Shown piece after piece: positions 1,666 through 27,016 of a stretch of 28,427 bases of DNA. Location of the stretch: positions 1 to 28,427 of the forward strand of contig JAGLRI010000001.1 in assembly GCA_023136395.1 (NCBI GenBank), given 5' to 3'. Source of the stretch: Candidatus Bathyarchaeota archaeon (GTDB taxonomy: Archaea; Thermoproteota; Bathyarchaeia; Bathyarchaeales; Bathyarchaeaceae). Below the pieces are notes generated by a model. That model made no database searches. It was not told where the DNA came from and was given only the letters and a program-made list of their open reading frames with translations. The translations under genes were made by a program, and so were the position numbers. The first letter of the stretch is position 1. The number at the start of each line of letters is the position of its first letter.

Positions 1666-2655
1666 ATGGCTAAAGAAGCCCTTTCAACAAAAAAAGAATA
1701 TAAACGCCTCGAAGACCTTCCAGGAATTGGGTCTACGACTGCTAGAAAGCTCCGCGAATTAGGCTTTCACACCATAGAAACTTTAGCAACGGCTACTACT
1801 CAGGAACTACAACGGGCAGGTATTGGAGAAAAAAAAGCGGGAGAGATAATTTGCGAGGTACGATCATACATCTCTCTTCCTTTTATCAGAGTAGACGAAT
1901 TACTTAAAAAACAGCAAACTGTTTTGAGACTAACCACCGGTAGCAAGTCACTTGACGACCTTGTGGGAGGAGGACTTGAAACTCAAACTATAACAGAGTT
2001 CTACGGGGAGTTTGGATCGGGGAAGAGTCAGATTTGCCATCAATTATGTGTTAATGTGCAACTTACTCCTGAGAGAGGAGGATTTGGTGGCGGAGCTTTA
2101 TATATTGATACAGAAAACACCTTTCGAACTCAACGCATTATTCAGATGGCGAAGCATTTGGGATTGGACCAAGATGAGGTTGCTAAGAACATCATTTATG
2201 CTGAAGCATATAACTCCGATCACCAGATGTTTCTGGTGGATAACGCGGATAAGGTAATTAATGAGAATAATATTCGTTTGATCATCGTGGATTCCTTGAC
2301 CTCTCATTTTAGGAGCGAGTATATTGGTAGAGAGCTGTTAGTAGAGAGGCAGCAGAAACTCAATAAACACCTACACAAACTAATTAGATTAGGGCGGGCT
2401 TTCAACGTGATTGTAGTCGTGACAAATCAAGTAATGGCTAAGCCAGATGTTTTCTTCGGTGAATCCGTATATCCTGTTGGGGGTCACATTCTTGCGCACA
2501 CAAGCAACACTCGATTATTCCTTCGAAAACCAAGAAGGGGCCCTATAAGGATCGCTCGCCTCATTTCAAGTCCATACCTACCCGAGGGAGAAAGAATGTT
2601 TACAATCACCGAAAATGGGATAGAAGATCTTTCAGAAGATGATCAACGGAGATAA
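1666..2655 (+). CDS. radA: DNA repair and recombination protein RadA
   Basis: 329 aa; N-terminal HhH (LEDLPGIG), Walker [19 protein letters not shown], Walker [20 protein letters not shown]. No intein. TATA-like TTTAAATA at 1617-1624. Confidence 0.97.
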
Positions 2656-2661
2656 TGATAA

Positions 2662-3006
2662 TTGCCTATTTCCCCTGCTGTTGTAACGCGGTTCGTTAGA
2701 CGCTTAATGGAAAGAAGATTTGCTGAGGCAGATCGTGTATTGGAACCGTTAAGAAAAGGAGCACAAAAAAATGATTGGGAGAAAGGATATCTCCAAGCCC
2801 TCAATGGCATGCTCTTAGCCGCGCGCGCATCGGATGATGACAGGCACCTTTTTCTTTCAAACATAAAATCTAGTAAAAAAGGTGAATTGCAAAAATACCG
2901 TCGCGAATTTTTAAAATATGCTAAGAGTGGGCTTCATGCAGATTATGATCGTGGTTTCTTCTCGGCCTGGGCTGAGTATATAAGGGTAACTTCTAAAGTA
3001 AAATGA
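2662..3006 (+). CDS. Hypothetical helical protein, probably co-transcribed with radA
   Basis: 114 aa ORF with a TTG start 6 nt after the radA stop and GGAG at 2648-2651. Internal repeat DWEKGYLQAL / DYDRGFFSAW. Confidence 0.7.
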   Translation: MPISPAVVTRFVRRLMERRFAEADRVLEPLRKGAQKNDWEKGYLQALNGMLLAARASDDDRHLFLSNIKSSKKGELQKYRREFLKYAKSGLHADYDRGFFSAWAEYIRVTSKVK

Positions 3007-3090: not shown

Positions 3091-3381
3091 TTATCCAGAT
3101 GGATGTGTGATAGTATACACTAGAATCCAGGTCACGATCCACATGATAAAATATGTACCTATACCCGTTGTAAACACCTTTTTTAAGTCCTCAGATGCTT
3201 CTCCCCATTTACCAGCAAACCAGCGTTTAAGGATGTAGTTGGTAAGGATGTAAAAAATTAATACAATGCCTACACCATTCATAAGATTAAGGTTAAAAAA
3301 CAATCCTAAAAAACCGCTTATTACTGCTGCAGTGATGCCTAAACAAACTCTGCTCCAGTAAATAACACTTAAAGGCTTCAA
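3091..3381 (-). CDS. Small 3-TM membrane protein resembling the Rab5ip family (EMC6 / OPTI-RAB5IF-like)
   Basis: 96 aa; three hydrophobic segments; VIYWSR...GFLGL at the N-terminus and TYFIMWIVTWILVYTITH at the C-terminus; TTG start with AGGAAG SD at 3395-3390. Confidence 0.65.
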   Translation of the reverse strand: MKPLSVIYWSRVCLGITAAVISGFLGLFFNLNLMNGVGIVLIFYILTNYILKRWFAGKWGEASEDLKKVFTTGIGTYFIMWIVTWILVYTITHPSG

Positions 3382-3408
3382 ATTAATTTCTTCCTAGGGG
3401 TAAATATT

Positions 3409-5400
3409 TTGAAGGAGGAGATGTCTAGTTTTGACATAGCCACTATTACCCCTGAAATCAACAAAGTAATTAGGGGTGCATGGATAGATAACATTTACCA
3501 AAGTAATCATTCAACCATTCTTTTAAAGTTTCGCCAACCCGGCAAGTCCCCAATTAATTTGCTTATAGAATCGGGAAGACGCCTTCACATAACCTCCTAC
3601 ACCGTAGAAAAACCGCTAAAACCTCCAATTTTTTGCATGGCCCTCCGAAAGTACTTGAAGAACGGGAAGGCGGTGGAGATTATTCAACACGAGTTTGACC
3701 GAACTGTGGTAATTAGCGTAAACACAAAGAGTGGAGAATTTAAACTCGTATCTGAACTGTTTGGTGTTGGAAATGTTATCCTGGTAAGTCCAGAAGATAG
3801 AATTCTTCATGCTTTGCATTATCGAAAAATGAAAGATAGAAGCATATGGCGTAATGAAATCTTTCAATTCGCTCCTTCAAAAGGTAAAAACCCACTTAAA
3901 TTAAATCGCCAAGATTTGAGTGAAATAAAGAATTTAGGGCAACAAGAAATTGTGCGGGTTCTTACAAAAGTTCTTAGTATAGGCGGACTTTATGCAGAAG
4001 AAATTCTTTTGCGCGCTCAAATTGACAAAAAAATGCCATGCGAACTAATTTCTGAACAGGAGATTGACAGACTCTTTAAACATCTTCGTCAAATCATCTC
4101 CTCCATTAGTGTTGGAAACATAAAACCAAATATCGTTTTTGATGACGAGAAGGGATGGATCGACGTAACCCCCATTTCCCTTAAAAAACACTTAGGTTTA
4201 AAACAAAAATTATTTAAAACTTTCAATGAAGCATTGGATGACTTTTACACGAATACAAGTTCGAATCCTAAAGTTGTTGATGTGGAACAAGAATTAGCAA
4301 GACAAAAAAGAATACTACAAAGTCAACTAAAAGCCCAAAAAGTTCAGAAAGAAAAGATTAAACAAAACAAAAAGATTGGTGACACGATCTATTTGCACTT
4401 TAATGAACTACAGTTTCTCCTTCAAAAAATCATGGATGGGAAAAAGAATGGTAAATCTTGGAAGCAAATAACTTTTAATATTTTAAAGGAAAAGGAAGAG
4501 GGAAAGATTCCAGCTGTCTATTTTCACTCCTTAGAGCCTGAAAACCGAATTTTTAATATTTGCATAAAAAACCTGAATTTTTCACTAGCGCTTCATCTTT
4601 CCATTCAAACTAGCGCAAATGACTATTATTCAATTGCAAAAAAAGCTAGAAAGAAATTGGAAGGTGTTAAGAAAGCCATAAGAAAAACCCAAATAAACAT
4701 AGAAGAGCCTCAACGGCAGTGGATTGAACTAATAAAAGAAAAAGATGAACTGCCGCGTAAAAAAAGGAAAGAGGCGTGGTACGAAAAATTCCGGTGGTTT
4801 CATTCGTCAAATGGATTTCTCGTTATTGGAGGAAGGGATGCCACAACAAATGAGATCATAATCAAGCGTTACATGGAACCCTACGATAAAGTTTTCCACG
4901 CGAATATCCATGGCGCACCCTTCGTTTTAATTAAAACCGAGGGGAAAATCCCACCTGATCAAACAATGAATGAAGCAGCCAAGTTTGCAGCCTCATATTC
5001 ACGGGCTTGGAAGGAGAGATTAGGCTCAGTCGATGTCTATGAATTTTCTCCTCAACAGGTAAGCAAAAGCCCACCATCAGGTCAGCATCTCAAGAAAGGA
5101 TCATTCATTATCTCAGGTCAAAAAAAGTCGTTTCGGAATGTTCCCTTAAGGATTGCCGTTGGAATTAAGTGGAAAAAAAAGTATCTTATAGTTATTGGAG
5201 GTCCTACGGAAACTATTGCTAATCAAACAAACAATTACGTTGAAATAATCCCAGGTGAGCAGAAAAGCGGAAGGCTTGCCAAGCAAATACGAGGATTATT
5301 AGCCAAGAGAGCACCTGAGAACCTAAAAAAACAAATTCTAAGGATTTCCTTAGAGGAAATACAAAAATTCACCCCGGGGGGTAGAGGGAAAATACCATAA
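3409..5400 (+). CDS. rqcH: Ribosome quality control protein RqcH/Rqc2 (NFACT family)
   Basis: 663 aa; NFACT-N (MSSFDI, FCMALRKYL, EFDR, ELFG.GN), coiled coil, NFACT-R (WYEKFRWF.SS.GFLVIGGRDA, HANIHGAP), SKSPPSGQHLKKGSF and NFACT-C. Confidence 0.93.
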   Translation: MKEEMSSFDIATITPEINKVIRGAWIDNIYQSNHSTILLKFRQPGKSPINLLIESGRRLHITSYTVEKPLKPPIFCMALRKYLKNGKAVEIIQHEFDRTVVISVNTKSGEFKLVSELFGVGNVILVSPEDRILHALHYRKMKDRSIWRNEIFQFAPSKGKNPLKLNRQDLSEIKNLGQQEIVRVLTKVLSIGGLYAEEILLRAQIDKKMPCELISEQEIDRLFKHLRQIISSISVGNIKPNIVFDDEKGWIDVTPISLKKHLGLKQKLFKTFNEALDDFYTNTSSNPKVVDVEQELARQKRILQSQLKAQKVQKEKIKQNKKIGDTIYLHFNELQFLLQKIMDGKKNGKSWKQITFNILKEKEEGKIPAVYFHSLEPENRIFNICIKNLNFSLALHLSIQTSANDYYSIAKKARKKLEGVKKAIRKTQINIEEPQRQWIELIKEKDELPRKKRKEAWYEKFRWFHSSNGFLVIGGRDATTNEIIIKRYMEPYDKVFHANIHGAPFVLIKTEGKIPPDQTMNEAAKFAASYSRAWKERLGSVDVYEFSPQQVSKSPPSGQHLKKGSFIISGQKKSFRNVPLRIAVGIKWKKKYLIVIGGPTETIANQTNNYVEIIPGEQKSGRLAKQIRGLLAKRAPENLKKQILRISLEEIQKFTPGGRGKIP

Positions 5401-5477: not shown

Positions 5478-6053
5478 GTGGCCGAAATAATCGTGAGGGA
5501 GCGAATGCTGGTTAAAGACGTTATGTCAAGCCCCGCAATTACAGCCAATGAGGATACTTCCATTAATAAAGTAGCCCGTTTAATGGAACAATATAAAATA
5601 GGGTGTATAATTGTAACAAGTAAAGATGGAAAACCTTTAGGAATGATCACTGAGAGAGATCTGGTGCTTCGCGTTTTGGTTAAAAACGCTCAAACAAGCA
5701 AGATAACTGCCAAGATGGTGATGACGTCACCTCTCATTACCATAGATCTTGATGAGACGATAAGCGAAGCAGCCAGAAGAATGAGTCAGCTTGATATTCG
5801 AAGGTTTGCTATTATATACCGAGGAAATCTTGTCGGCATAATTTCAAGCAAGGATATTCTCGCGGTTACACCTGAACTCATAGAAATCATGCAAGAGAAA
5901 GCTCGGATTGAAGGATTTGTAGAAGAGGAGATACAGCGTTCCCCTCTAGCAGGATATTGCGATCAGTGTGGACGTTGGTCTGACACCTTAAAGGAGACTG
6001 AAGGAAACTTTCTCTGTAAGGAATGCCAAATTGAATTTGAAGTTGAATACTGA
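5478..6053 (+). CDS. CBS-pair protein with C-terminal Zn ribbon
   Basis: Two CBS repeats (VKDVMSSP...GMITERDL; KMVMTSP...GIISSKDIL) and C-terminal CDQC...CKEC; GGAGGT SD at 5466-5471 before GTG. Confidence 0.88.
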   Translation: MAEIIVRERMLVKDVMSSPAITANEDTSINKVARLMEQYKIGCIIVTSKDGKPLGMITERDLVLRVLVKNAQTSKITAKMVMTSPLITIDLDETISEAARRMSQLDIRRFAIIYRGNLVGIISSKDILAVTPELIEIMQEKARIEGFVEEEIQRSPLAGYCDQCGRWSDTLKETEGNFLCKECQIEFEVEY

Positions 6054-10239: not shown

Positions 10240-10460
10240 GAGTCTTTCCTCATAAAGGGTTTTATTTACATATTACCTACCAGATTCTTTCTAGCCTCTT
10301 CGTTATTATTTCTATCTTCTTTTAGAAGTGTATATTATAGAATATGGAAGCATTTTATTAAATTGGAAGTAAAAAACCCTTTTTAATAAGAGTGATAAGA
10401 AAATTTACAAGATTTAATATTGTTAAGGTCCATATTTCCAAAGGTAAAAGGAGAAGTTAC

Positions 10461-11090
10461 ATGACATTTCAGCTAACTCTTGAAGAGGTGGAATTCCTAG
10501 TGAGACTCGCTCGAAGAGCAATAGAAGAGTACCTTAAAAAGGAAATAACTATCGAGGTGCCTGAGGAAACCCCTCCGAAGCTTTTGGAGCAATACGGGGT
10601 TTTCATCACATTATATAGTATTAAACGCCAGAAAAAGGAGTTAAGGGGCTGTATTGGTTTTCCTTATCCAACCATCCCCCTGGTACAAGCTGTGATCAAA
10701 TCTGCGATCAATTCCGCGGCACAGGATCCCCGTTTTAATCCAGTCTCCCTTGAGGAGCTTGATCATATCGTGCTTGAAGTGAGCGTACTCACTCCTCCCC
10801 AGCTGATCGAAGTTGAGAAGGCGGTAAACTATCCTTCAAAAGTGATTGTTGGGCAAGACGGATTGATTATCGAAAGAGGTTACTACAGGGGTCTTCTTCT
10901 ACCTCAAGTACCGGTGGAGTGGAATTGGAGTGAAGAAGAATTTCTTTGCCAATGCTGTATGAAAGCTGGCTTATCACCAGACAGCTGGTTACTCAAGGGA
11001 ACGAAAGTATACAAGTTTAGTTGTATTATTGCTCAAGAAACTACCCCAAAGGGTAAGGTTACTATTATAGATATGCGTGGAGATCACTAG
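10461..11090 (+). CDS. AMMECR1 domain protein (AmmeMemoRadiSAM protein A family)
   Basis: GVFITL, LRGCIG, DPRF, EVSVL, GLLLPQV, FLCQCCMKAGL. The likely start is ATG 10461 (AGGAG at 10449-10453), not the listed 10392. Confidence 0.92.
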   Translation: MTFQLTLEEVEFLVRLARRAIEEYLKKEITIEVPEETPPKLLEQYGVFITLYSIKRQKKELRGCIGFPYPTIPLVQAVIKSAINSAAQDPRFNPVSLEELDHIVLEVSVLTPPQLIEVEKAVNYPSKVIVGQDGLIIERGYYRGLLLPQVPVEWNWSEEEFLCQCCMKAGLSPDSWLLKGTKVYKFSCIIAQETTPKGKVTIIDMRGDH

Positions 11091-16955: not shown

Positions 16956-18350
16956 TTGAGCAAGCGATTTCAACAGAATAGCAATTTTCAACTGAAGTTT
17001 AAAAAATTACCCTTTTTGTATTCGCCTTCTGAGATCTTCTTAAGAATTTATAAGTGTTATGAACATGCTTACCTCCTTGAGTCAATAGAAGGTCCAAAAA
17101 AATTAGCTCAGTATTCGTTTATTGGATTTGCGCCTAAATTGAGGCTAAAGGTAAAAGATGGCGAAATAATACTCCAAGATATCAAACTAGACGAAGAAAT
17201 TAGGATAAAAAACGAAGACCCTCTTCATATAGCAAGGAAGATTCTAGGAAGAAGGTCTCCCATTGCGAGATTTAGATTTATTGGTGGTGCTGTAGGATAT
17301 ATTTCCTATGATGCAATACGATACTGGGAAAGGCTTCCTGATTTTACTGTTGATGCCTTGCGTTTTCCCGATATTGAGTTGGGCATATTTGATGATGGCG
17401 TTGTGTTCGATCATAGTAGAAGGGAGGTTTTCTATTATTATTGGAATGAAGATCGTTTCGATGAGCTGAATAAGTTATTAAAGGAACCTGTTGAATCTGA
17501 GGCGTTATACTTTACAAATCCCAAGGTAAACGTCTCGAAGGAAAGGTTTGAGGAATCAGTGCAGAGAGCTAAGGCATATATAGCATCTGGCGACATCTTT
17601 CAGGTTGTTCTCTCAAAAAGATACGAGTTTGTTATCAAGGGTGACTTGACGAGTTTCTATATGTCCCTCCGAAAGGTAAACCCCTCTCCCTATATGTATT
17701 TCTTAAAAATGGGTGACCGCCAAATCGTTGGGTCAAGCCCCGAAATGCTTTTTAGAGTAGATAATGGTTTTGTGGAGACTTTTCCCATTGCTGGTACAAG
17801 ACCATACGTAAAAAATCCCATTGAAAATGAGGCATTAAAAAAGGAGTTATTGTCAGATCCCAAGGAACGTGCTGAACACGTAATGCTTGTAGATTTAGCT
17901 AGAAACGATGTTGGTCGAGTCTCAGAATTTGGAAGCGTTTCTGTTCCCGAATTCATGAAAGTTCACCAATACAGCCACGTTCAACACATAGTATCAAGGG
18001 TAGTTGGTAAACTGAAGGGGGGGTGCGATTGCTTTGACGCATTGAGAGCTGTTTTTCCAGCAGGTACAGTTTCAGGAGCACCCAAAGTAAGGGCTATGGA
18101 GATCATCGAAGAATCTGAGCCTACAAAGAGAGGACCTTACGCGGGGGCTGTTGGCTACTTCTCCCATAATGGAAACGCAGACTTCGCCATTACCATAAGA
18201 ACCCTCGTTGCAAAAGGAAAAAAATGTTACATTCAGGTTGGAGGTGGTATAGTAGCTGACTCTGTTCCTGAGAGAGAGTGGTTTGAAACAGAGCATAAAG
18301 CTCGGGCTCTACTGAAAGCTCTAGAACTATGTGGAGAAAACCAACAGTGA
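16956..18350 (+). CDS. trpE: Anthranilate synthase component I
   Basis: 464 aa; LLES and NPSPYM (Trp feedback site), GDIFQVVLS, PIAGTR, KERAEHVMLVDLARND, FPAGTVSGAPK. The TTG start has no evident SD. Confidence 0.96.
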   Translation: MSKRFQQNSNFQLKFKKLPFLYSPSEIFLRIYKCYEHAYLLESIEGPKKLAQYSFIGFAPKLRLKVKDGEIILQDIKLDEEIRIKNEDPLHIARKILGRRSPIARFRFIGGAVGYISYDAIRYWERLPDFTVDALRFPDIELGIFDDGVVFDHSRREVFYYYWNEDRFDELNKLLKEPVESEALYFTNPKVNVSKERFEESVQRAKAYIASGDIFQVVLSKRYEFVIKGDLTSFYMSLRKVNPSPYMYFLKMGDRQIVGSSPEMLFRVDNGFVETFPIAGTRPYVKNPIENEALKKELLSDPKERAEHVMLVDLARNDVGRVSEFGSVSVPEFMKVHQYSHVQHIVSRVVGKLKGGCDCFDALRAVFPAGTVSGAPKVRAMEIIEESEPTKRGPYAGAVGYFSHNGNADFAITIRTLVAKGKKCYIQVGGGIVADSVPEREWFETEHKARALLKALELCGENQQ

Positions 18351-18928
18351 AGGTTCTTGTCATCGACAATTACGATTCGTTTGTTTATAATCTTGTTCAA
18401 TACATTGGAGAACAAGGGGGAATCCCTCTGGTCTACAGAAATGATAAACTAACCCTGAAACAAGCAGAGAATTTTAAACCAGACAGGATTGTTATATCTC
18501 CAGGTCCCGGTACACCAGAAGATGTCCGGTATTTTGGGATTTGCTCCGATATCCTACAACACCTAAGTTGTAAGATTCCAACCTTAGGCGTTTGCCTTGG
18601 TCACCAAGGAATAGTTTCAACCTTTGGGGGAAAAATAATACCCGCAAAGAGGCTGATGCACGGTAAAACAAGCTTAATAAAACATGATGCTCAAGGCGTC
18701 TTTAAAAGCTTGAAAAATCCTATCGTGGCTACTCGCTACCACTCTCTCGTTGGGGAAAGAACGTCAATGCCTTCATGCCTTAAAATAACTGCTGAGTCAC
18801 TCGACGATGGAGAAATCATGGGAGTTCGTCACATAGTATATCCAATTGAGGGGATCCAATTTCATCCCGAGTCGATTTTAACTGAGATGGGAAAGAAACT
18901 CATAAAGAATTTTCTTGAAAGGAGATGA
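18347..18928 (+). CDS. trpG: Anthranilate synthase component II (glutamine amidotransferase)
   Basis: IDNYDSF, ISPGPG, GVCLGHQ, RYHSL, QFHPES. The likely start is GTG 18347 overlapping the trpE stop (GTGA), with GGAG at 18333-18336. Confidence 0.95.
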   Translation: MKVLVIDNYDSFVYNLVQYIGEQGGIPLVYRNDKLTLKQAENFKPDRIVISPGPGTPEDVRYFGICSDILQHLSCKIPTLGVCLGHQGIVSTFGGKIIPAKRLMHGKTSLIKHDAQGVFKSLKNPIVATRYHSLVGERTSMPSCLKITAESLDDGEIMGVRHIVYPIEGIQFHPESILTEMGKKLIKNFLERR

Positions 18929-18934
18929 AGGAAG

Positions 18935-19996
18935 ATGATAAGGGAAGGCATACGAAAGCTGATTGCAGGTATGACCCTTGCGTATAATGAATCAAGAGAG
19001 ATAATGAACGAGATAATGTCTGGTAATGCAACGCAAGCACAAATTGGCGCATTCTTAACGGCCTTGAGAATGAATGGAGAAACGATCGATGAGATCTCTG
19101 CACTTGCTTCAGTAATGAAGGAATTTTGTTACCAAATACATCCTCAAGTAAATGGGCGTCTCGTAGATACTTGCGGAACAGGTGGAGATAAAATAAAAAC
19201 CTTCAACATCAGCACTACTGCTGCCTTCGTTATTGCTGGTGCCAAGGTGTCAGTGGCTAAGCACGGGAATCGATCAGTAACTAGCAAAAGTGGAAGCGCA
19301 GACGTTTTGGAGAAACTCGGTGTTAATCTCAACGCAACACCAAACGTTGTAGAAAGTAGCATCGAGGAGGTTGGAATTGGCTTCATGTTTGCCCCAACAT
19401 TTCATAAGGCTATGAAACATGTTATTGGACCAAGAAGAGAAATAGGAGTGAGAACCGTTTTTAATGTTCTTGGACCCTTGACGAATCCAGCGAACGCAAG
19501 CGCCCAATTATTAGGGGTTTATGATAGAGCATTACTAGAGCCTCTGGCAGGGGTATTAAAGAAACTTGGATGCGAAGAAGCCATGGTCGTGCATGGTCTA
19601 GATGGACTGGACGAAATTTCCACTATTGGTAAAACAGCTATCGCATGGCTAAAGGAGGAAGAAATTAGCTTATTAGAAGTAGTTCCTAAAGACTTTGGCA
19701 TCGAAAAGACAAGACTAGAAGACATCATGGGAACAACACCCGAAAAAAGTGCGGAAATAACATTCAAAATCTTGACTGATCAACACAAGAATGGAGACCC
19801 AAAGAGAGATATTGTATTAGCGAATGCGGCAGCAGGGATTCTACTAGGTGGAAAAGGTAGTGATTTCTGTTATAGCGTCGAATTAGCCTGTGAATCCATC
19901 AAAAGTGGGGCTGCATATAAAAAACTAAAAATGCTTATTGAAGTTGGTGGCGGTGATAAGGCGAGGCTCGAGGAGCTGGAAAATAAATATGGCTGA
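18935..19996 (+). CDS. trpD: Anthranilate phosphoribosyltransferase
   Basis: DTCGTGGD, FNIST, KHGNRS..SKSGSAD, RTVFNVLGPLTNP, GLDEIS. Confidence 0.96.
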   Translation: MIREGIRKLIAGMTLAYNESREIMNEIMSGNATQAQIGAFLTALRMNGETIDEISALASVMKEFCYQIHPQVNGRLVDTCGTGGDKIKTFNISTTAAFVIAGAKVSVAKHGNRSVTSKSGSADVLEKLGVNLNATPNVVESSIEEVGIGFMFAPTFHKAMKHVIGPRREIGVRTVFNVLGPLTNPANASAQLLGVYDRALLEPLAGVLKKLGCEEAMVVHGLDGLDEISTIGKTAIAWLKEEEISLLEVVPKDFGIEKTRLEDIMGTTPEKSAEITFKILTDQHKNGDPKRDIVLANAAAGILLGGKGSDFCYSVELACESIKSGAAYKKLKMLIEVGGGDKARLEELENKYG

Positions 19997-20768
19997 TTTT
20001 CTGGATGTCTTGGGACAAAAAGCACGGAAAAGGGTGAAAGAGGGTTATTATAAAGTCACAAAACAGATAATAGCTCCCACTAAAGGTCTAAAAGAGGCAG
20101 TTCTTGAGTGTAAAAACGCTCCCATAATTAGTGAAATCAAAGTTGCTTCACCAACAATGGGCGTTATCAGAAAAAAAATTGATGTAAATAAAGTTGCCAT
20201 AGCAATGGAAAAGGGTGGAGCAATTGGAATTTCGGTACTAACCGAGCCCAAACATTTCAAAGGATCAATAGATACTTTCATTAAAGTGAGGTCCCAAGTT
20301 GACCTTCCCCTCCTTATGAAAGACATTGTTGTAAACCGAACACAGATTGAGGCTGCAGCAAAAATGGGCGCAAATGCAATCCTTTTAATAGAGGCTCTCT
20401 TCAAACGTGGCTACTGTGATTGCGATGTTCATCGAATGATTGCTGAAGCTCATTCACAAAAACTTGAAGTTTTATTGGAGATTCTTACCGAAGAAGAGTT
20501 CATATCAGCTATAAAAACTGAAGCCGATTTAATCGGTATTAACAATCGTGATTTAAGAACACTTGAAGTAGATCTTGAAGTAACAAGGAGAATCTTGACA
20601 AAAAATTGCATTAATGAAAAGTTAATTGTAAGCGAAAGTGGCATTAAGAGTTCTGCTGACGTCCGCTTTCTCCACGAATGTGGTGCCCACGCTTTCTTAG
20701 TTGGGTCCTCTATCATGAGGAGTAGTAACATCCAAAAAATGGTCAAGGAGCTAGTGTTGGCTCTATGA
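19989..20768 (+). CDS. trpC: Indole-3-glycerol phosphate synthase
   Basis: ISEIKVASP, SVLTEPKHF.GS, LMKD, GINNRDL, SESGI, LVGSSIM. The likely start is ATG 19989 (MADF), overlapping the end of trpD. Confidence 0.95.
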   Translation: MADFLDVLGQKARKRVKEGYYKVTKQIIAPTKGLKEAVLECKNAPIISEIKVASPTMGVIRKKIDVNKVAIAMEKGGAIGISVLTEPKHFKGSIDTFIKVRSQVDLPLLMKDIVVNRTQIEAAAKMGANAILLIEALFKRGYCDCDVHRMIAEAHSQKLEVLLEILTEEEFISAIKTEADLIGINNRDLRTLEVDLEVTRRILTKNCINEKLIVSESGIKSSADVRFLHECGAHAFLVGSSIMRSSNIQKMVKELVLAL

Positions 20769-21415
20769 GTAGAGTAAGAGTGAAAATCTGCGGAATAACA
20801 CGAAAAAAAGATTTAGCAGCGGTTATTGAAGCTGGGGCTGATGCCGTGGGATTCGTTATTGGTGTACCCTCATCACCCAGAAACTTGACGCTCGATGAGG
20901 CAAGAAAAATGATAAAAAATACAATTTTTATCAAGACCGTTGCGGTAACAGTTCCTAATAATCTTGACAAATTAAAAAAGATCCATGAGAATCTAAGGCC
21001 AGATATTCTTCAAATTCACGGTGATAGATTATCTGACTCTATCATTCGAGAAGAGTTACCTAAAACACGTTTAATAAGAGCTGTTCAAGTAACGTCCAAT
21101 GGAAGTATTAAGACTGTTGTTGATGCAGCAAATAGCTTTGACGCTATTCTTTTAGACTCTTATGTTTTGGGTAAGTATGGTGGAACAGGCAAAACTCACG
21201 ACTGGCAACTGGACAAATGCGTTAGAGAAGCCATTCAACCGAAACCGCTAATTCTTGCTGGGGGTTTAAATCCTACCAACATTAAAGACGCCATACGCAT
21301 CGTCCAGCCATATGCTGTTGATGTTTCTAGTGGTGTCGAATCACATCCGGGAATTAAAGACCCAAAAAAAATTTACAAATTTATAAAAAATGTTAAGGAA
21401 GCGGAAATATGTTAA
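20765..21415 (+). CDS. trpF: Phosphoribosylanthranilate isomerase
   Basis: KICGIT, ADAVGFV, QIHG, LLDS, GGTGK..DW, LAGGL.P.N, DVSSGVE; ATGA overlap with trpC. Confidence 0.95.
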
Positions 21416-22608
21416 AATTTAGTCAATATCCAATTGAGGGAAAATATGGAAAATATGGTGGACAATTTGTTCCAGAAACTTTAATGGTTGCCATTAAAGA
21501 ACTGGAAGAAGCCTATAAAAAATCAAAAGTAGATCAAGATTTTCAAAAGAAACTTAAATATTACCTCTCGGAATACGCTGGAAGACCTACGCCATTATAT
21601 TATGCTGAAAATTTAACTAAAAAGATAGGAGGCGCGAAGATCTACCTTAAACGTGAAGATCTCGCACATGGAGGAGCCCACAAGATAAACAACACCATAG
21701 GACAAGCCTTACTTGCAAAAAAGATGGGAAAGAAAAGAGTTATTGCAGAAACGGGTGCCGGACAACACGGGGTCGCTACAGCCATAGCCTGCGCTACTCT
21801 TGGGTTGAAAGCCGAGATCTACATGGGTTCTAAAGACATGAAACGACAAAAGCTCAATGTTTTCAGGATGAAACTTCTTGGCGCAGAGATTCATCAGGTA
21901 GAGTCCGGATCCAAAACTTTAAAAGACGCTATTAATGAAGCCTTGAGGGATTGGGCTACCAACGTTCAGACAACCTATTACCTTATTGGGTCCGTTGTCG
22001 GTCCTCACCCATATCCAATTATTGTTAGAGACCTCCAAAGTGTAATTGGTAACGAAATTATGAAACAGATAATGCTAAAGGAGGAACAACTACCTAGCGC
22101 CTTAATCGCTTGCGTAGGAGGTGGAAGCAACGCCATAGGAACTTTCTACCCATTTCTGGATTATCCATTAGTCAAGATGTATGGTGTTGAAGCAGCCGGT
22201 TTAGGACTCGATTCTAGTAAGCACGCTGCATCACTTTGCGTAGGAGCGGAAGGCGTCTTTCACGGCATGCTAACATATGTACTTCAAGACGAGCATGGAC
22301 AAATACAAACTACACATAGCATCTCTGCAGGACTTGATTATCCAGGAGTCGGACCAGAACATTCCTTCCTCAAGATGAGGGAAAGAGCTCGATACGCTAC
22401 TGCTACGGATGAAGAAGCAGTAAATGCCTTCCTTGAATTATCAAAGAATGAGGGAATAGTCCCAGCGTTGGAACCCGCACATGCCTTGGCTTATGCCATT
22501 AAACTTGCTCATACGATGGGAAGAGACAAAATAATCGTAGTGACCTTGTCTGGAAGGGGTGACAAGGATGCAGAAGTGGTAGCGAAACATCTAGGGGTGA
22601 AGATATGA
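21409..22608 (+). CDS. trpB: Tryptophan synthase beta chain type 1
   Basis: [64 protein letters not shown]. Confidence 0.97.
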
Positions 22609-24000: not shown

Positions 24001-25038
24001 ATGAAAGTGTTCAGCGGCTGTTATACTGCACTTGTAACGCCAATGAAGAAGACTTGTGAAGTTGACTACGAAAGCTTACAGAGATTGGTTGAGTTTCAGG
24101 TAAGAGAAGGTGTGCAGGGCATTCTTGCTGTTGGGACTACTGGTGAATGTGCGACGTTAACTTGGGACGAACACGTCAAAGTCATTGAAAAAATACACGA
24201 GGACATCAATGAAAGATGTGAGACAATTGGCGGAACAGGAAGTAACTGCACAGAGGAAGTTATAAACGCCTCAAAAAGCGCGTGGGATTTTGGGGTAAAA
24301 TCCTTGTTGCTTGTAGATCCATATTATAACGGACCAAGCTCCATTGAAATAAGAAAAGAGTACATCGAACCAGTAGCGAAACGATTTCCTGAAGCCGAAA
24401 TTATTCCATACGTGATTCCTGGAAGAACAGGCACCCAACTTTTACCACAAGATTTAGCCATCCTACATTCTGAGTACAAAAATGTAAATACTGTCAAGGA
24501 GGCAACAGGTAACTTAGAAAACATGAAATTAACCAGAAAGTTTTGCGGGAAAAATTTTAACATTCTTTCTGGAGATGATGATAAAACGTATCAAATGATG
24601 ACATCTCCAGAGATCATGTCTAAAGGCGTGGTTTCAGTGGCATCGAACGTCGTCCCTAATGCAGTTCAGAATATGGTTCAAAGCATTCTTGATGGGGACC
24701 TAGACGAAGCTGTTAAGCTTACTAAAGCGCTTAAACCCATGTTTAGAATAGTAACAGTCAAGACAGAGGAAGAAACACCGTTTGGTCCTATGATTTGTAA
24801 AGCCAGAAATCCTCTGCCTTATAAGACTTTAATGAATATTTTGGGAATGTCCACAGGTCCCTGCAAGCAACCATTAGGAAAGATGACAAGGAAGGGAGTG
24901 GAAACTATACTAAATGAAGTGAAAGAGGTCTATGTAAATAATCCCGAGATACTGCAACCAATAGAAGATTTTTTCGATGTTGATATGAGCAACCGCTTGT
25001 ACGAGGAGAAGTTTTGGAAGGAATATTTCTATGATTAG
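24001..25038 (+). CDS. dapA: 4-hydroxy-tetrahydrodipicolinate synthase
   Basis: TALVTP, GTTGE, GTGSN, PYY, PGRTG, catalytic VKEA, LSGDD; extended C-terminus. Confidence 0.9.
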   Translation: MKVFSGCYTALVTPMKKTCEVDYESLQRLVEFQVREGVQGILAVGTTGECATLTWDEHVKVIEKIHEDINERCETIGGTGSNCTEEVINASKSAWDFGVKSLLLVDPYYNGPSSIEIRKEYIEPVAKRFPEAEIIPYVIPGRTGTQLLPQDLAILHSEYKNVNTVKEATGNLENMKLTRKFCGKNFNILSGDDDKTYQMMTSPEIMSKGVVSVASNVVPNAVQNMVQSILDGDLDEAVKLTKALKPMFRIVTVKTEEETPFGPMICKARNPLPYKTLMNILGMSTGPCKQPLGKMTRKGVETILNEVKEVYVNNPEILQPIEDFFDVDMSNRLYEEKFWKEYFYD

Positions 25039-25819
25039 TATTTGCATAGCTGGTGTTACCGGTAGAATGGGAAGTACACTCCTTAGAGAAGCCTTAAACA
25101 AAAGTTATCAGATTGTTGGAGCTGTTGAGTCTCCAAATAATGTAAACATTGGGAAAAGCTTAAGAGAGATTGGGCTGTGTAGCTCAGACGTTAAATTAAT
25201 GAGCTCAGCAGATTTAAGTGAATCTATAAAAAACGCAGACGTTTACATAACTTTTACCACACCGGATGCGGAGGTTTCTAATCTTCCCGTTGTCGCTGAG
25301 CTTGGGAAGAGGATTGTGATGGGTACTACTGGTTTCACTAATGAACAAATGGAAAAGATCCGGAAAACAGTTTCCAGCAAGGTTCCAGCTGTTTTTTCAC
25401 CTAACTTTGCTTTGGGCGTAAATGTTTTGTTCAGGTTGACCAAAAATTGCAAGGCTTTTCCGTCGGAATACGACTTCAGCATAACTGAGATCCATCATAC
25501 CGGAAAGAGGGACGCTCCCAGTGGGACAGCAAAAGAAATTGCCCGAATAGTTTCAAGTTTTAAAGATTACACTAAGGTTATTTATGGCAGAGAAGGATTA
25601 AGCCTAAGGAAATCAGATGAACTAGAAATCTTATCTTTGAGAACGGGGGGTGTTCCTGGGGTACACAACTTAGTAATCGCCGGTCCATACGAAATGATAA
25701 GAATAGAACACACGGCTTTCTCAAGAAGTGTGTTTGCTCAGGGCGCCTTATACGCTGCAGAATGGGTTTACAAACAAAGCGAATCGAGAATTTATAGCAT
25801 GGAAGATGTCTTACGCTGA
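25031..25819 (+). CDS. dapB: 4-hydroxy-tetrahydrodipicolinate reductase
   Basis: G.TGRMG, MGTTG, SPNFALG, EIHHTGKRDAPSGTA, H...SR..FA.GAL.AA.W. Confidence 0.95.
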   Translation: MISICIAGVTGRMGSTLLREALNKSYQIVGAVESPNNVNIGKSLREIGLCSSDVKLMSSADLSESIKNADVYITFTTPDAEVSNLPVVAELGKRIVMGTTGFTNEQMEKIRKTVSSKVPAVFSPNFALGVNVLFRLTKNCKAFPSEYDFSITEIHHTGKRDAPSGTAKEIARIVSSFKDYTKVIYGREGLSLRKSDELEILSLRTGGVPGVHNLVIAGPYEMIRIEHTAFSRSVFAQGALYAAEWVYKQSESRIYSMEDVLR

Positions 25820-25831
25820 ATTCAGTTGTGA

Positions 25832-27016
25832 ATGCATATGGATGATAGAGCAGTAATCAAATTTGGTGGTGCGGACCTTTCCACTGGCTGGGGGATCAGG
25901 AGATCAGCTGAAATGGTAGTTAAGTCTAGTTATAAAGAAGTTGTCGTGGTTGTTTCAGCTATTGGGAAGACAACAGATAAGTTAGAAGAGATAATATCAC
26001 AAATTAACATTAGCGACCAGGATTACGCTGAAATCGTTTCAATTGGTGAAAGAACTAGTGCTAGAATTTTCTGTTCCGCGTTAAGATCCCTTGGAGCTAA
26101 TACCAGCTATTTCGACCCCAGCTTAGATAATTGGCCATTAATCACGGACTCGAATTTCCGTAACGCTAAACCAAATATGAAGGAAACGAAGAGCCTTGTT
26201 AAAAAATTTTTAGAGCCCATGTTAGGAGAAGCAATTCCGGTAGTATGTGGTTTTCTTGGGCGTGACCGTCACAGAAAAATCACCACGCTTGGCAGAGGCG
26301 GAAGCGATATAACCGCTTTACTACTTGCAAACTGTTTGGAAGCAAATGAAGTGATACTCGTTAAGGATGTGGAGGGTGTGCTTTCATCGGACCCTAAAAT
26401 AGTGCCAAATGTTAAGCCTTTTGATAAACTGGACATCCACGAGATGTTTGCCCTAGCGCAGGGAGGCGCAAAAATTGTTAGAGCAGAGGCATTAACATAT
26501 AAACGTCCAAACCAGAGACTCAGAATAGTTGGTTTCTCATCAAACAACCTTGTAAAGGGAGGAACGGAGATCACTGGCACTTTCAATCCATTTTCCGTAG
26601 AGATTAATCAATATGAAGGCTTATCAGCCATCACTGTGGTTTGCAAAATTAACCCGGAAAACCTTAGTACACTTTTCTCAACACTTCACCAAAAAACCAT
26701 TTATGGAGTCAGTACGGGGAAAAATTCCATTACCGTTTTTTCCCAGCATAAGGACATTGAGGAAACTATTAATAAATTACACAATCGCGAAAACTTCAAA
26801 GCTATCAGCTATAGGGATAAAGTTGGAATTATTGAAGTAACTCATCCGGTTTTTATTGATTCTCCGGGATGGGTTTCGAAAATTGCTGGTGAATTGGCAT
26901 CAAAGGACATTAATATTATTGAGATTACTACGGGCAAAGCAACAATTAACATTTTTATTGACGAAAAGCGCCTTAAGGATGCAAGTAAAGTGGTAGGTGA
27001 AGTGTTTGAAGCGTAA
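25832..27016 (+). CDS. lysC: Aspartate kinase with C-terminal ACT domains
   Basis: KFGG, VVSA.G.TT, GER.S, GFLG, TTLGRGGSD.TA, DVEGV.S.DP. The start could be ATG 25838. Confidence 0.92.
   Translation: MHMDDRAVIKFGGADLSTGWGIRRSAEMVVKSSYKEVVVVVSAIGKTTDKLEEIISQINISDQDYAEIVSIGERTSARIFCSALRSLGANTSYFDPSLDNWPLITDSNFRNAKPNMKETKSLVKKFLEPMLGEAIPVVCGFLGRDRHRKITTLGRGGSDITALLLANCLEANEVILVKDVEGVLSSDPKIVPNVKPFDKLDIHEMFALAQGGAKIVRAEALTYKRPNQRLRIVGFSSNNLVKGGTEITGTFNPFSVEINQYEGLSAITVVCKINPENLSTLFSTLHQKTIYGVSTGKNSITVFSQHKDIEETINKLHNRENFKAISYRDKVGIIEVTHPVFIDSPGWVSKIAGELASKDINIIEITTGKATINIFIDEKRLKDASKVVGEVFEA

Follow-up and report, generated by a model that had tools for sequence, protein, structure and literature searches.

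Small membrane proteins of Bathyarchaeota that are labelled 'hypothetical protein' in public records include the one encoded in the window, by which we mean the whole 28,427-nt stretch of DNA that was analysed (G+C content 38.8%). Its gene stands head-to-head with a gene for the ribosome-rescue factor RqcH (Table 1), and the locus raises the question of whether the protein is a helper subunit of a membrane protein insertase, as a likeness to EMC6 and OPTI would suggest, or whether its neighbour points to another role. The genome assembly comprises 1.42 Mb in 253 contigs and is 81% complete. The close relatives of the window are Bathyarchaeia, including six loci that a related-locus search with a small alignment returned, and the window DNA was found in cold-seep and marine-sediment metagenomes, all of them DNA data sets. 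Scans for Rfam families, tRNAs and bacterial-type promoters and terminators gave nothing relevant. Further along the window (16956–22608 and 24001–27016) ordinary biosynthesis genes are found, coding for anthranilate synthase, an anthranilate phosphoribosyltransferase-like protein (PF00591), PALP-family (TrpB-like) proteins, a DHDPS-family protein and an amino-acid (aspartate-type) kinase.

Table 1. Features of the window around the EMC6/OPTI-like gene, with positions counted from the first nucleotide of the window.
Feature	Position	Strand	Remarks
RadA recombinase	1666..2655	+	Pfam Rad51, 296 bits; on the 3' side of the EMC6-like gene, same syntenic block
114-aa protein, no known family	2662..3006	+	Tail-to-tail with the EMC6-like gene; begins 7 nt after RadA
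EMC6/OPTI-like gene	3091..3381	-	96 aa plus stop, TTG start, three TM helices; from ORF, hydropathy, Pfam, profile and fold match
Spacer between divergent starts	3382..3408	.	27 nt; 39 nt if RqcH begins at ATG 3421
Archaeal RqcH/NFACT ribosome-rescue gene	3409..5400	+	NCBIfam RqcH_arch; Pfam NFACT_N and NFACT-R_1
CBS-domain-pair protein with Cys-rich, zinc-ribbon-like tail	5478..6053	+	Pfam CBS, 102 bits; 77 nt downstream of RqcH

Family membership by sequence and fold

The TTG start of the EMC6-like gene is supported by its homologues, which open with the identical MKPLS(V/I)IYW in 37 of 41 related genomes. Among 1.84 billion representatives, all searched with HMMER, homologues turned up in 109 clusters (50% identity) at E ≤ 0.001, and a six-frame search of the genome with PF07019 gave exactly one match, the window gene itself (22.5 bits). 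The reading frame is a real conserved gene, and a chance ORF is excluded. Kyte-Doolittle hydropathy gives three hydrophobic segments (residues ∼12–29, 34–50 and 72–90), and the AlphaFold model has helices at residues 3–29, 33–58 and 63–92. The three transmembrane (TM) segments of a preliminary description, made from the DNA letters, were thus borne out, and the two strings it had quoted, VIYWSRVCLG...GFLGL close to the N-terminus and TYFIMWIVTWILVYTITH close to the C-terminus, are both present in the translation.

Against the Pfam family EMC6 (PF07019) the protein scored 23.5 bits (E 8.1e-5, profile positions 1–81 of 81) and, as a single sequence, passes the curated cut-off of 23.3 bits only marginally. 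A phmmer search of all PDB sequences returned a single match, OPTI (7tut_9), at E 0.067. With a profile of 94 aligned family members (A2), human OPTI (PDB 7TUT chain 9) was matched over its entire length at E 3.3e-9, EMC6 followed at E 0.047–0.062, and the first unrelated chain appeared only at E 0.44. The alignment of OPTI with the family is collinear from end to end and takes in motifs outside the TM segments, namely IYWxR before TM1, TxG at the opening of TM3 and WxxxYT at the end. PF07019 was matched at E ≤ 0.01 by 47 of the 94 members (best 4.9e-9). Narrow profiles, meant to distinguish OPTI from EMC6, gave matches too weak to be read either way, to OPTI at E 0.21 for eight Bathyarchaeial sequences and to EMC6 at E 0.27 for 11 Asgard sequences. 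The archaeal Pfam model EMC6_arch (PF19094) was matched by 10 of the 94 relatives at E ≤ 0.01; the window protein misses its cut-off of 26.7 bits (12.6 bits, E 0.19), and a six-frame search with this model found no match anywhere in the genome. Since this cut-off is missed, the protein is filed under PF07019 and under the broader concept of 'archaeal EMC6-like' proteins. The strings that had been given for the human proteins also reappeared in the HMMER alignments, which show LDVIYWFRQ (given as DVIYWFRQ...) and, at the C-terminus, MVIWIIFYTAIH for OPTI, and YCRT...AGILGL and YVLFWTFLY for EMC6.

The AlphaFold2 model, built on the A2 alignment, has three helices, a pLDDT of 78.2 and a pTM of 0.60. 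When it was compared by Foldseek with 350,542 PDB chains, ranks 1–5 were all taken by OPTI or EMC6 (TM-scores of 0.60–0.75): OPTI with a TM-score of 0.68 and 27% identity, three entries of human EMC6 with 0.71–0.75, and yeast EMC6 with 0.60; rank 6 falls to a probability of 0.63. Sequence and fold evidence agree on EMC6/OPTI membership, and the EMC6/OPTI (Rab5ip) type first proposed for the protein now has both a profile match and a structural match behind it. Judged by the profiles and the model, the window protein is a genuine relative of the eukaryotic EMC6 and OPTI, which are helper subunits of membrane protein insertases. Three homologue searches returned no eukaryotic sequences, and the tree is archaeal-only. 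Its backbone is unresolved; the window protein falls in a group of 42 rows with a bootstrap value of 91 (under the star level of the tool), which takes in two of the three named Bathyarchaeota sequences, and the Loki-type sequences form one long-branched clade.

The DUF106 gene and the proposed insertase

The topology was predicted from the charged residues of the 94 aligned sequences. The mean K+R count is 2.8 for the N-terminal tail, 0.17 for loop 1, 4.2 for loop 2 and 0.18 for the C-terminal tail. This distribution obeys the positive-inside rule, so that the N-terminus is predicted to be cytoplasmic and the C-terminus to be outside. Many relatives (174–403 aa) carry PKD, CARDB or MG2-type Ig-like domains C-terminal of TM3, and these domains, being of the extracytoplasmic type, agree with the prediction. 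The best-conserved positions are Y8, W9, R11, G15, G36, Y44, K68, T71, G73, G75, Y77, W81 and W85.

Several variants were seen among the relatives. Ig-like C-terminal domains are carried by P0134, P0042, P0013, P0014 and L050:219-782 (minus strand), and one of the carrier genomes (G029) is from the order to which the window belongs. In one member (G127 of family f15, L047:545-1018, minus strand) the N-terminus is lengthened by ∼55 residues, a polybasic stretch with many Lys, Glu and Ser, provided that its TTG start is right, and the longer open frames of other f15 genomes (143–221 aa) suggest a similar extension. In G018 (L009:560-1231, plus strand) a 224-aa ORF on the same strand immediately precedes the EMC6-like gene; its match to TRAP_alpha, the translocon-associated protein alpha subunit, is sub-threshold (E 0.001, 18.8 bits versus a cut-off of 24.7).

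An Oxa1-family partner had been expected outside the window, and this is where it was found: the genome does contain such a gene, a sole PF01956 (EMC3_TMCO1/DUF106) gene on contig C29 that codes for 170 aa (61 bits) and immediately follows secY, with the gene for ribosomal protein L34e coming next, and the window has none. In a phmmer search of the PDB the DUF106 protein matched MJ0480, the YidC-like protein of archaea, best (E 1e-5) and then TMCO1 (E 0.055). Foldseek with its single-sequence AF2 model (pLDDT 70) gave generic long-helix matches (ABC exporters, PspA, CHMP3), all at E ≥ 0.5, and was uninformative; the identity of the partner therefore rests on the Pfam and MJ0480 matches.

The existence of archaeal relatives, also stated in the preliminary description, is indeed on record (PMC8675477, PMC9630114). 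Lewis and Hegde (2021) reported that each archaeal proteome has one EMC6-like protein, whose gene lies apart from the secY-yidC ribosomal cluster, and that a heterodimer of MJ0480 and MJ0606 from M. jannaschii is predicted with high confidence (PMC8675477); by the same account no biochemistry of YidC in archaeal cells exists. Sundaram et al., who name OPTI, already mention 'GEL complex homologues in archaea' (PMC9630114). The layout observed here, with one EMC6-like gene that is unlinked from the DUF106 gene beside secY, is the one described in PMC8675477. The pairing of the two proteins is one that we infer from their homologues: every characterised member of the family (EMC6, OPTI and GET2) is an obligate partner of an Oxa1-superfamily protein (PMC9630114, PMC8675477).

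Overall, the window protein is quite probably an archaeal EMC6/OPTI member that serves as the small subunit of a two-subunit insertase of the DUF106/YidC type. Its 96 residues would form three helices in the cytoplasmic membrane, the N-terminus facing inwards and the C-terminus outwards. By analogy with EMC6-EMC3, OPTI-TMCO1 and GET2-GET1, the protein most likely attaches to the lipid-facing side of the single Oxa1-superfamily insertase of the genome. This insertase would be the DUF106 protein, or archaeal YidC, encoded beside secY. The pair would help TM segments with short outside tails into the membrane, probably alongside SecY on translating ribosomes. A counterpoint to the proposed insertase role is that the EMC6-like gene adjoins RqcH and not its presumed DUF106 partner.

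The divergent pair with the RqcH gene

The RqcH gene product (663 aa) scores 619.6 bits against NCBIfam RqcH_arch (cut-off 400) and has two start candidates, TTG 3409 and ATG 3421. A CTTCC motif (GGAAG on the minus strand) precedes the EMC6-like start by 8 nt, a GGAGG motif lies ahead of ATG 3421, and the palindrome AAATATTT is located at 3402–3409. The spacer is too short for two separate promoters with leaders. Since the Shine-Dalgarno-like motifs of both genes lie within these 27–39 nt, each promoter would have to reach into the opposite gene. Spacers of 26–40 nt with back-to-back CCTCC/GAGG motifs were also found in Asgard and other loci.

The persistence of the pair was determined in a phylum sample of 121 genomes from 29 families, in which the A2 profile detects the EMC6-like gene in 93. 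By comparing the coordinates of the NFACT-R and EMC6-like matches by hand, the two genes were found on opposite strands, divergent and at direct-neighbour spacing in 86 of these 93 genomes, or 87 when one is added whose contig breaks inside NFACT (G033). The six exceptions have extra DNA between the genes (G040, G078), the genes far apart (G068, G133) or on different contigs (G153), or no NFACT match (G086). Among the closer relatives with both genes (n = 35), 21 have them adjacent, 8 have 1–3.6 kb in between, and in 6 they are separated or their arrangement is undetermined. The eight relatives with an insert keep the divergent orientation; in the four whose inserts were inspected (G010, G023, G040 and G017; loci L007, L008, L010 and L004) an ABC-2 transporter, a dockerin protein, a CHASE4 histidine kinase and a MazE antitoxin were seen. 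Outside the phylum, three Asgard assemblies (Promethearchaeota, Ca. Borrarchaeum and Ca. Lokiarchaeota) have NFACT and EMC6 head-to-head, 26–40 nt apart and with outer neighbours that differ from those of the window; being one narrow clade of ≥70% identity, they are counted as one lineage. RadA, which flanks the EMC6-like gene opposite RqcH, served as a control and is adjacent in only 43 of the 93 phylum genomes; two genomes keep RadA beside the EMC6-like gene and have RqcH elsewhere.

The pair is set in a conserved block that was found in contigs of divergent members and matches the window: (fumarase)-RadA-small ORF-EMC6-like/RqcH-CBS-(Mut7-C). The small ORF after RadA is kept in relatives and in three divergent loci; the 114-aa protein of the window has no Pfam or NCBIfam match, and its Atlas clusters contain Bathyarchaeota only. 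In three other loci (L052, L053, L054) NFACT likewise has a CBS gene after it, and this recurrence suggests that there may be an RqcH-CBS operon. Within a region that rearranges slowly, the RqcH pair is the core that persists best, and it is no isolated oddity.

Some further neighbours were noted. Mut7-C adjoins the block in L054; at the corresponding place in the window, the CBS and amidohydrolase genes leave no space for it. An AMMECR1 gene, a published archaeal NFACT neighbour (PMC4075521), lies at window positions 10392–11090 on the plus strand, ∼5 kb from RqcH. In the Loki-type loci (L017:4955-6208, L018:6178-7430 and L019:5290-6036) a KaiC/RadA-like ATPase (PF06745, 248–253 aa) is encoded two genes downstream of EMC6; the gene in between is an AsnC-type regulator in L017 and L018 and has no Pfam match in L019. 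RadA of TACK members lies beside the EMC6-like gene in another orientation than this ATPase, and the resemblance may be coincidence.

In principle, an arrangement this persistent could tie the EMC6-like protein to ribosome-associated quality control, besides or instead of its partnership with YidC, the pair reflecting co-regulation or a physical link. We consider this rather unlikely, and equally so the version in which the protein serves as a docking point at the membrane and recruits RqcH to large subunits stalled on the insertase. The pair does outlast the RadA neighbourhood, spans 27–39 nt in the window and recurs in the phylum, in the close relatives and in the Loki-type assemblies, but divergent pairs can last through interlocked promoters alone, and in TACK members this pair is part of the larger block RadA-orf-EMC6-like/RqcH-CBS. 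Separation is also tolerated: in the eight relatives with inserts 1–3.6 kb lies between the two genes, with unrelated genes in the four inspected, which shows that the link is not obligatory, and in two genomes RadA is still adjacent and RqcH lies elsewhere. The archaeal NFACT neighbours given by Burroughs and Aravind are Mut7-C and AMMECR1, with no membrane protein among them (PMC4075521), the RqcH pairing is unmentioned in PMC8675477, and the literature searched yielded no link of EMC6, OPTI or TMCO1 with NFACT, NEMF or Rqc2. The pairing is more likely to reflect a compact bidirectional promoter region that resists disruption than a functional coupling of insertion and rescue. It is conceivable, if doubtful, that the divergent pair is an ancient functional unit that couples a YidC-type insertase to ribosome-associated quality control. 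Such a unit might act, equally tentatively, through joint regulation that clears large subunits stalled on the insertase or through docking of RqcH by the small membrane protein. In its favour, the pair with its shared 26–40 nt spacer persists from Thermoproteota to Loki-type Asgard archaea across changes in the genes that flank it.

The phyletic pattern bears on both the pairing and the partnership. The PF01956 family was detected in 91 of the 121 phylum genomes, and both profiles fail in families f16, f23, f24, f28, f30, f31, f34, f37 and most of f29; f10 is the sole whole-family discrepancy between the two. This shared detectability fits co-evolving partners. It fits as well the statement in PMC5898192 that most crenarchaea encode highly diverged YidC orthologues, and it is weak evidence because the co-variation probably reflects few independent events, or one or a few fast-evolving clades. 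In 18 Thermoprotei-like genomes without a genome-wide match, the region upstream of NFACT was inspected: a divergent EMC6-like ORF was present in five (f16, f29), one has an unrelated-looking 97-aa ORF with three TM segments (hhalign probability 0.3%), and in the remaining 12 no EMC6-like ORF was found there, with none in f23, f28, f30, f31, f34 and f37. This lack of an EMC6-like ORF beside NFACT in several families is a further point against a quality-control role. The PF19094 matches in five Thermoprotei-like genomes were spurious.

The protein could also act by itself, for instance as a small intramembrane chaperone or scaffold, and have no obligate complex with DUF106. Its gene is unlinked from the DUF106 gene, and the lineage-specific Ig-like domains outside and polybasic extensions inside suggest contacts that are independent of such a partner. 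The obligate partnerships of EMC6, OPTI and GET2, the high-confidence prediction for the archaeal pair and the co-varying detectability of the two families speak against solo action, which is very unlikely in our estimate. Finally, that an unrelated small hydrophobic protein resembles EMC6 and OPTI through its TM composition, as the marginal single-sequence scores (PF07019 and phmmer) and Foldseek E-values of only 0.02–0.05 might suggest, is highly improbable, since this reading found no support in the profile and fold searches, where A2 separates OPTI from other membrane proteins (E ≥ 0.44), the alignment includes the non-TM motifs and the top five chains are all OPTI or EMC6.

Comparison with known systems and implications

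The proposed insertase subunit was compared with four known systems. OPTI (RAB5IF/C20orf24), the obligate partner of TMCO1 in the GEL complex of the multipass translocon (PDB 7TUT chain 9; PMC9630114), is the best sequence match and the highest-ranking fold match, with three TM helices, IYWxR before TM1 and a W..I.FYT..H ending in common. It differs in being a eukaryotic ER protein with a 40-residue N-terminal extension, whereas the window protein has 96 aa and belongs to the cytoplasmic membrane, and it works with TMCO1 in a larger Sec61-PAT-BOS assembly that is absent from prokaryotes (PMC9630114); the presumed partner here is an MJ0480-type DUF106 protein. EMC6 is of the same PF07019 family, has the highest TM-scores to the model (0.73–0.75, rmsd 2.3–2.6) and has helices of equal order and length, but its sequence match is far weaker than that of OPTI (E 0.05, 19% identity), and it is part of a multi-subunit complex with eight conserved subunits (PMC7785296), for which no archaeal counterpart was found here. 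GET2/CAML, the partner of GET1, is likewise a three-TM partner of an Oxa1-superfamily insertase (PMC8675477, PMC9630114). It has a cytosolic extension for GET3, which the window protein lacks, and GET2 was not matched in the PDB sequence searches or among the best 50 Foldseek rows.

The archaeal EMC6-like proteins (M. jannaschii MJ0606, Lokiarch_50810 and others, with predicted YidC/MJ0480 partners, PMC8675477; Pfam EMC6_arch, PF19094) embody the same concept, and the window protein most likely belongs to the same orthologous group as those of the MJ0606 type. One copy per genome, a DUF106 gene in the secY-ribosomal cluster and an EMC6-like gene away from it are shared features. The window protein and most of its TACK relatives differ in scoring higher on the eukaryote-based EMC6 model than on EMC6_arch (47 versus 10 of 94). 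Archaeal EMC6-like partners of YidC have already been published, and the window protein adds a further example of them; by itself it is ordinary for the specialist, and the less ordinary feature is the stable head-to-head pairing with RqcH.

With public records still reading 'hypothetical', the result is useful for annotation. In the published view, the eukaryotic EMC6, OPTI and GET2 are descendants of an archaeal YidC partner, and the protein adds a well-supported Bathyarchaeial example to this view; it also shows that TACK-group proteins, beyond those of Asgard alone, are recognisably OPTI-like by plain sequence profiles. If the pairing with RqcH is functional, it would offer a handle on how archaea treat ribosomes that stall during membrane protein insertion and on what archaeal RqcH does. 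Were the divergent pair truly an ancient unit that links insertase and rescue factor, it would be an archaeal forerunner of the quality control at the ER translocon.
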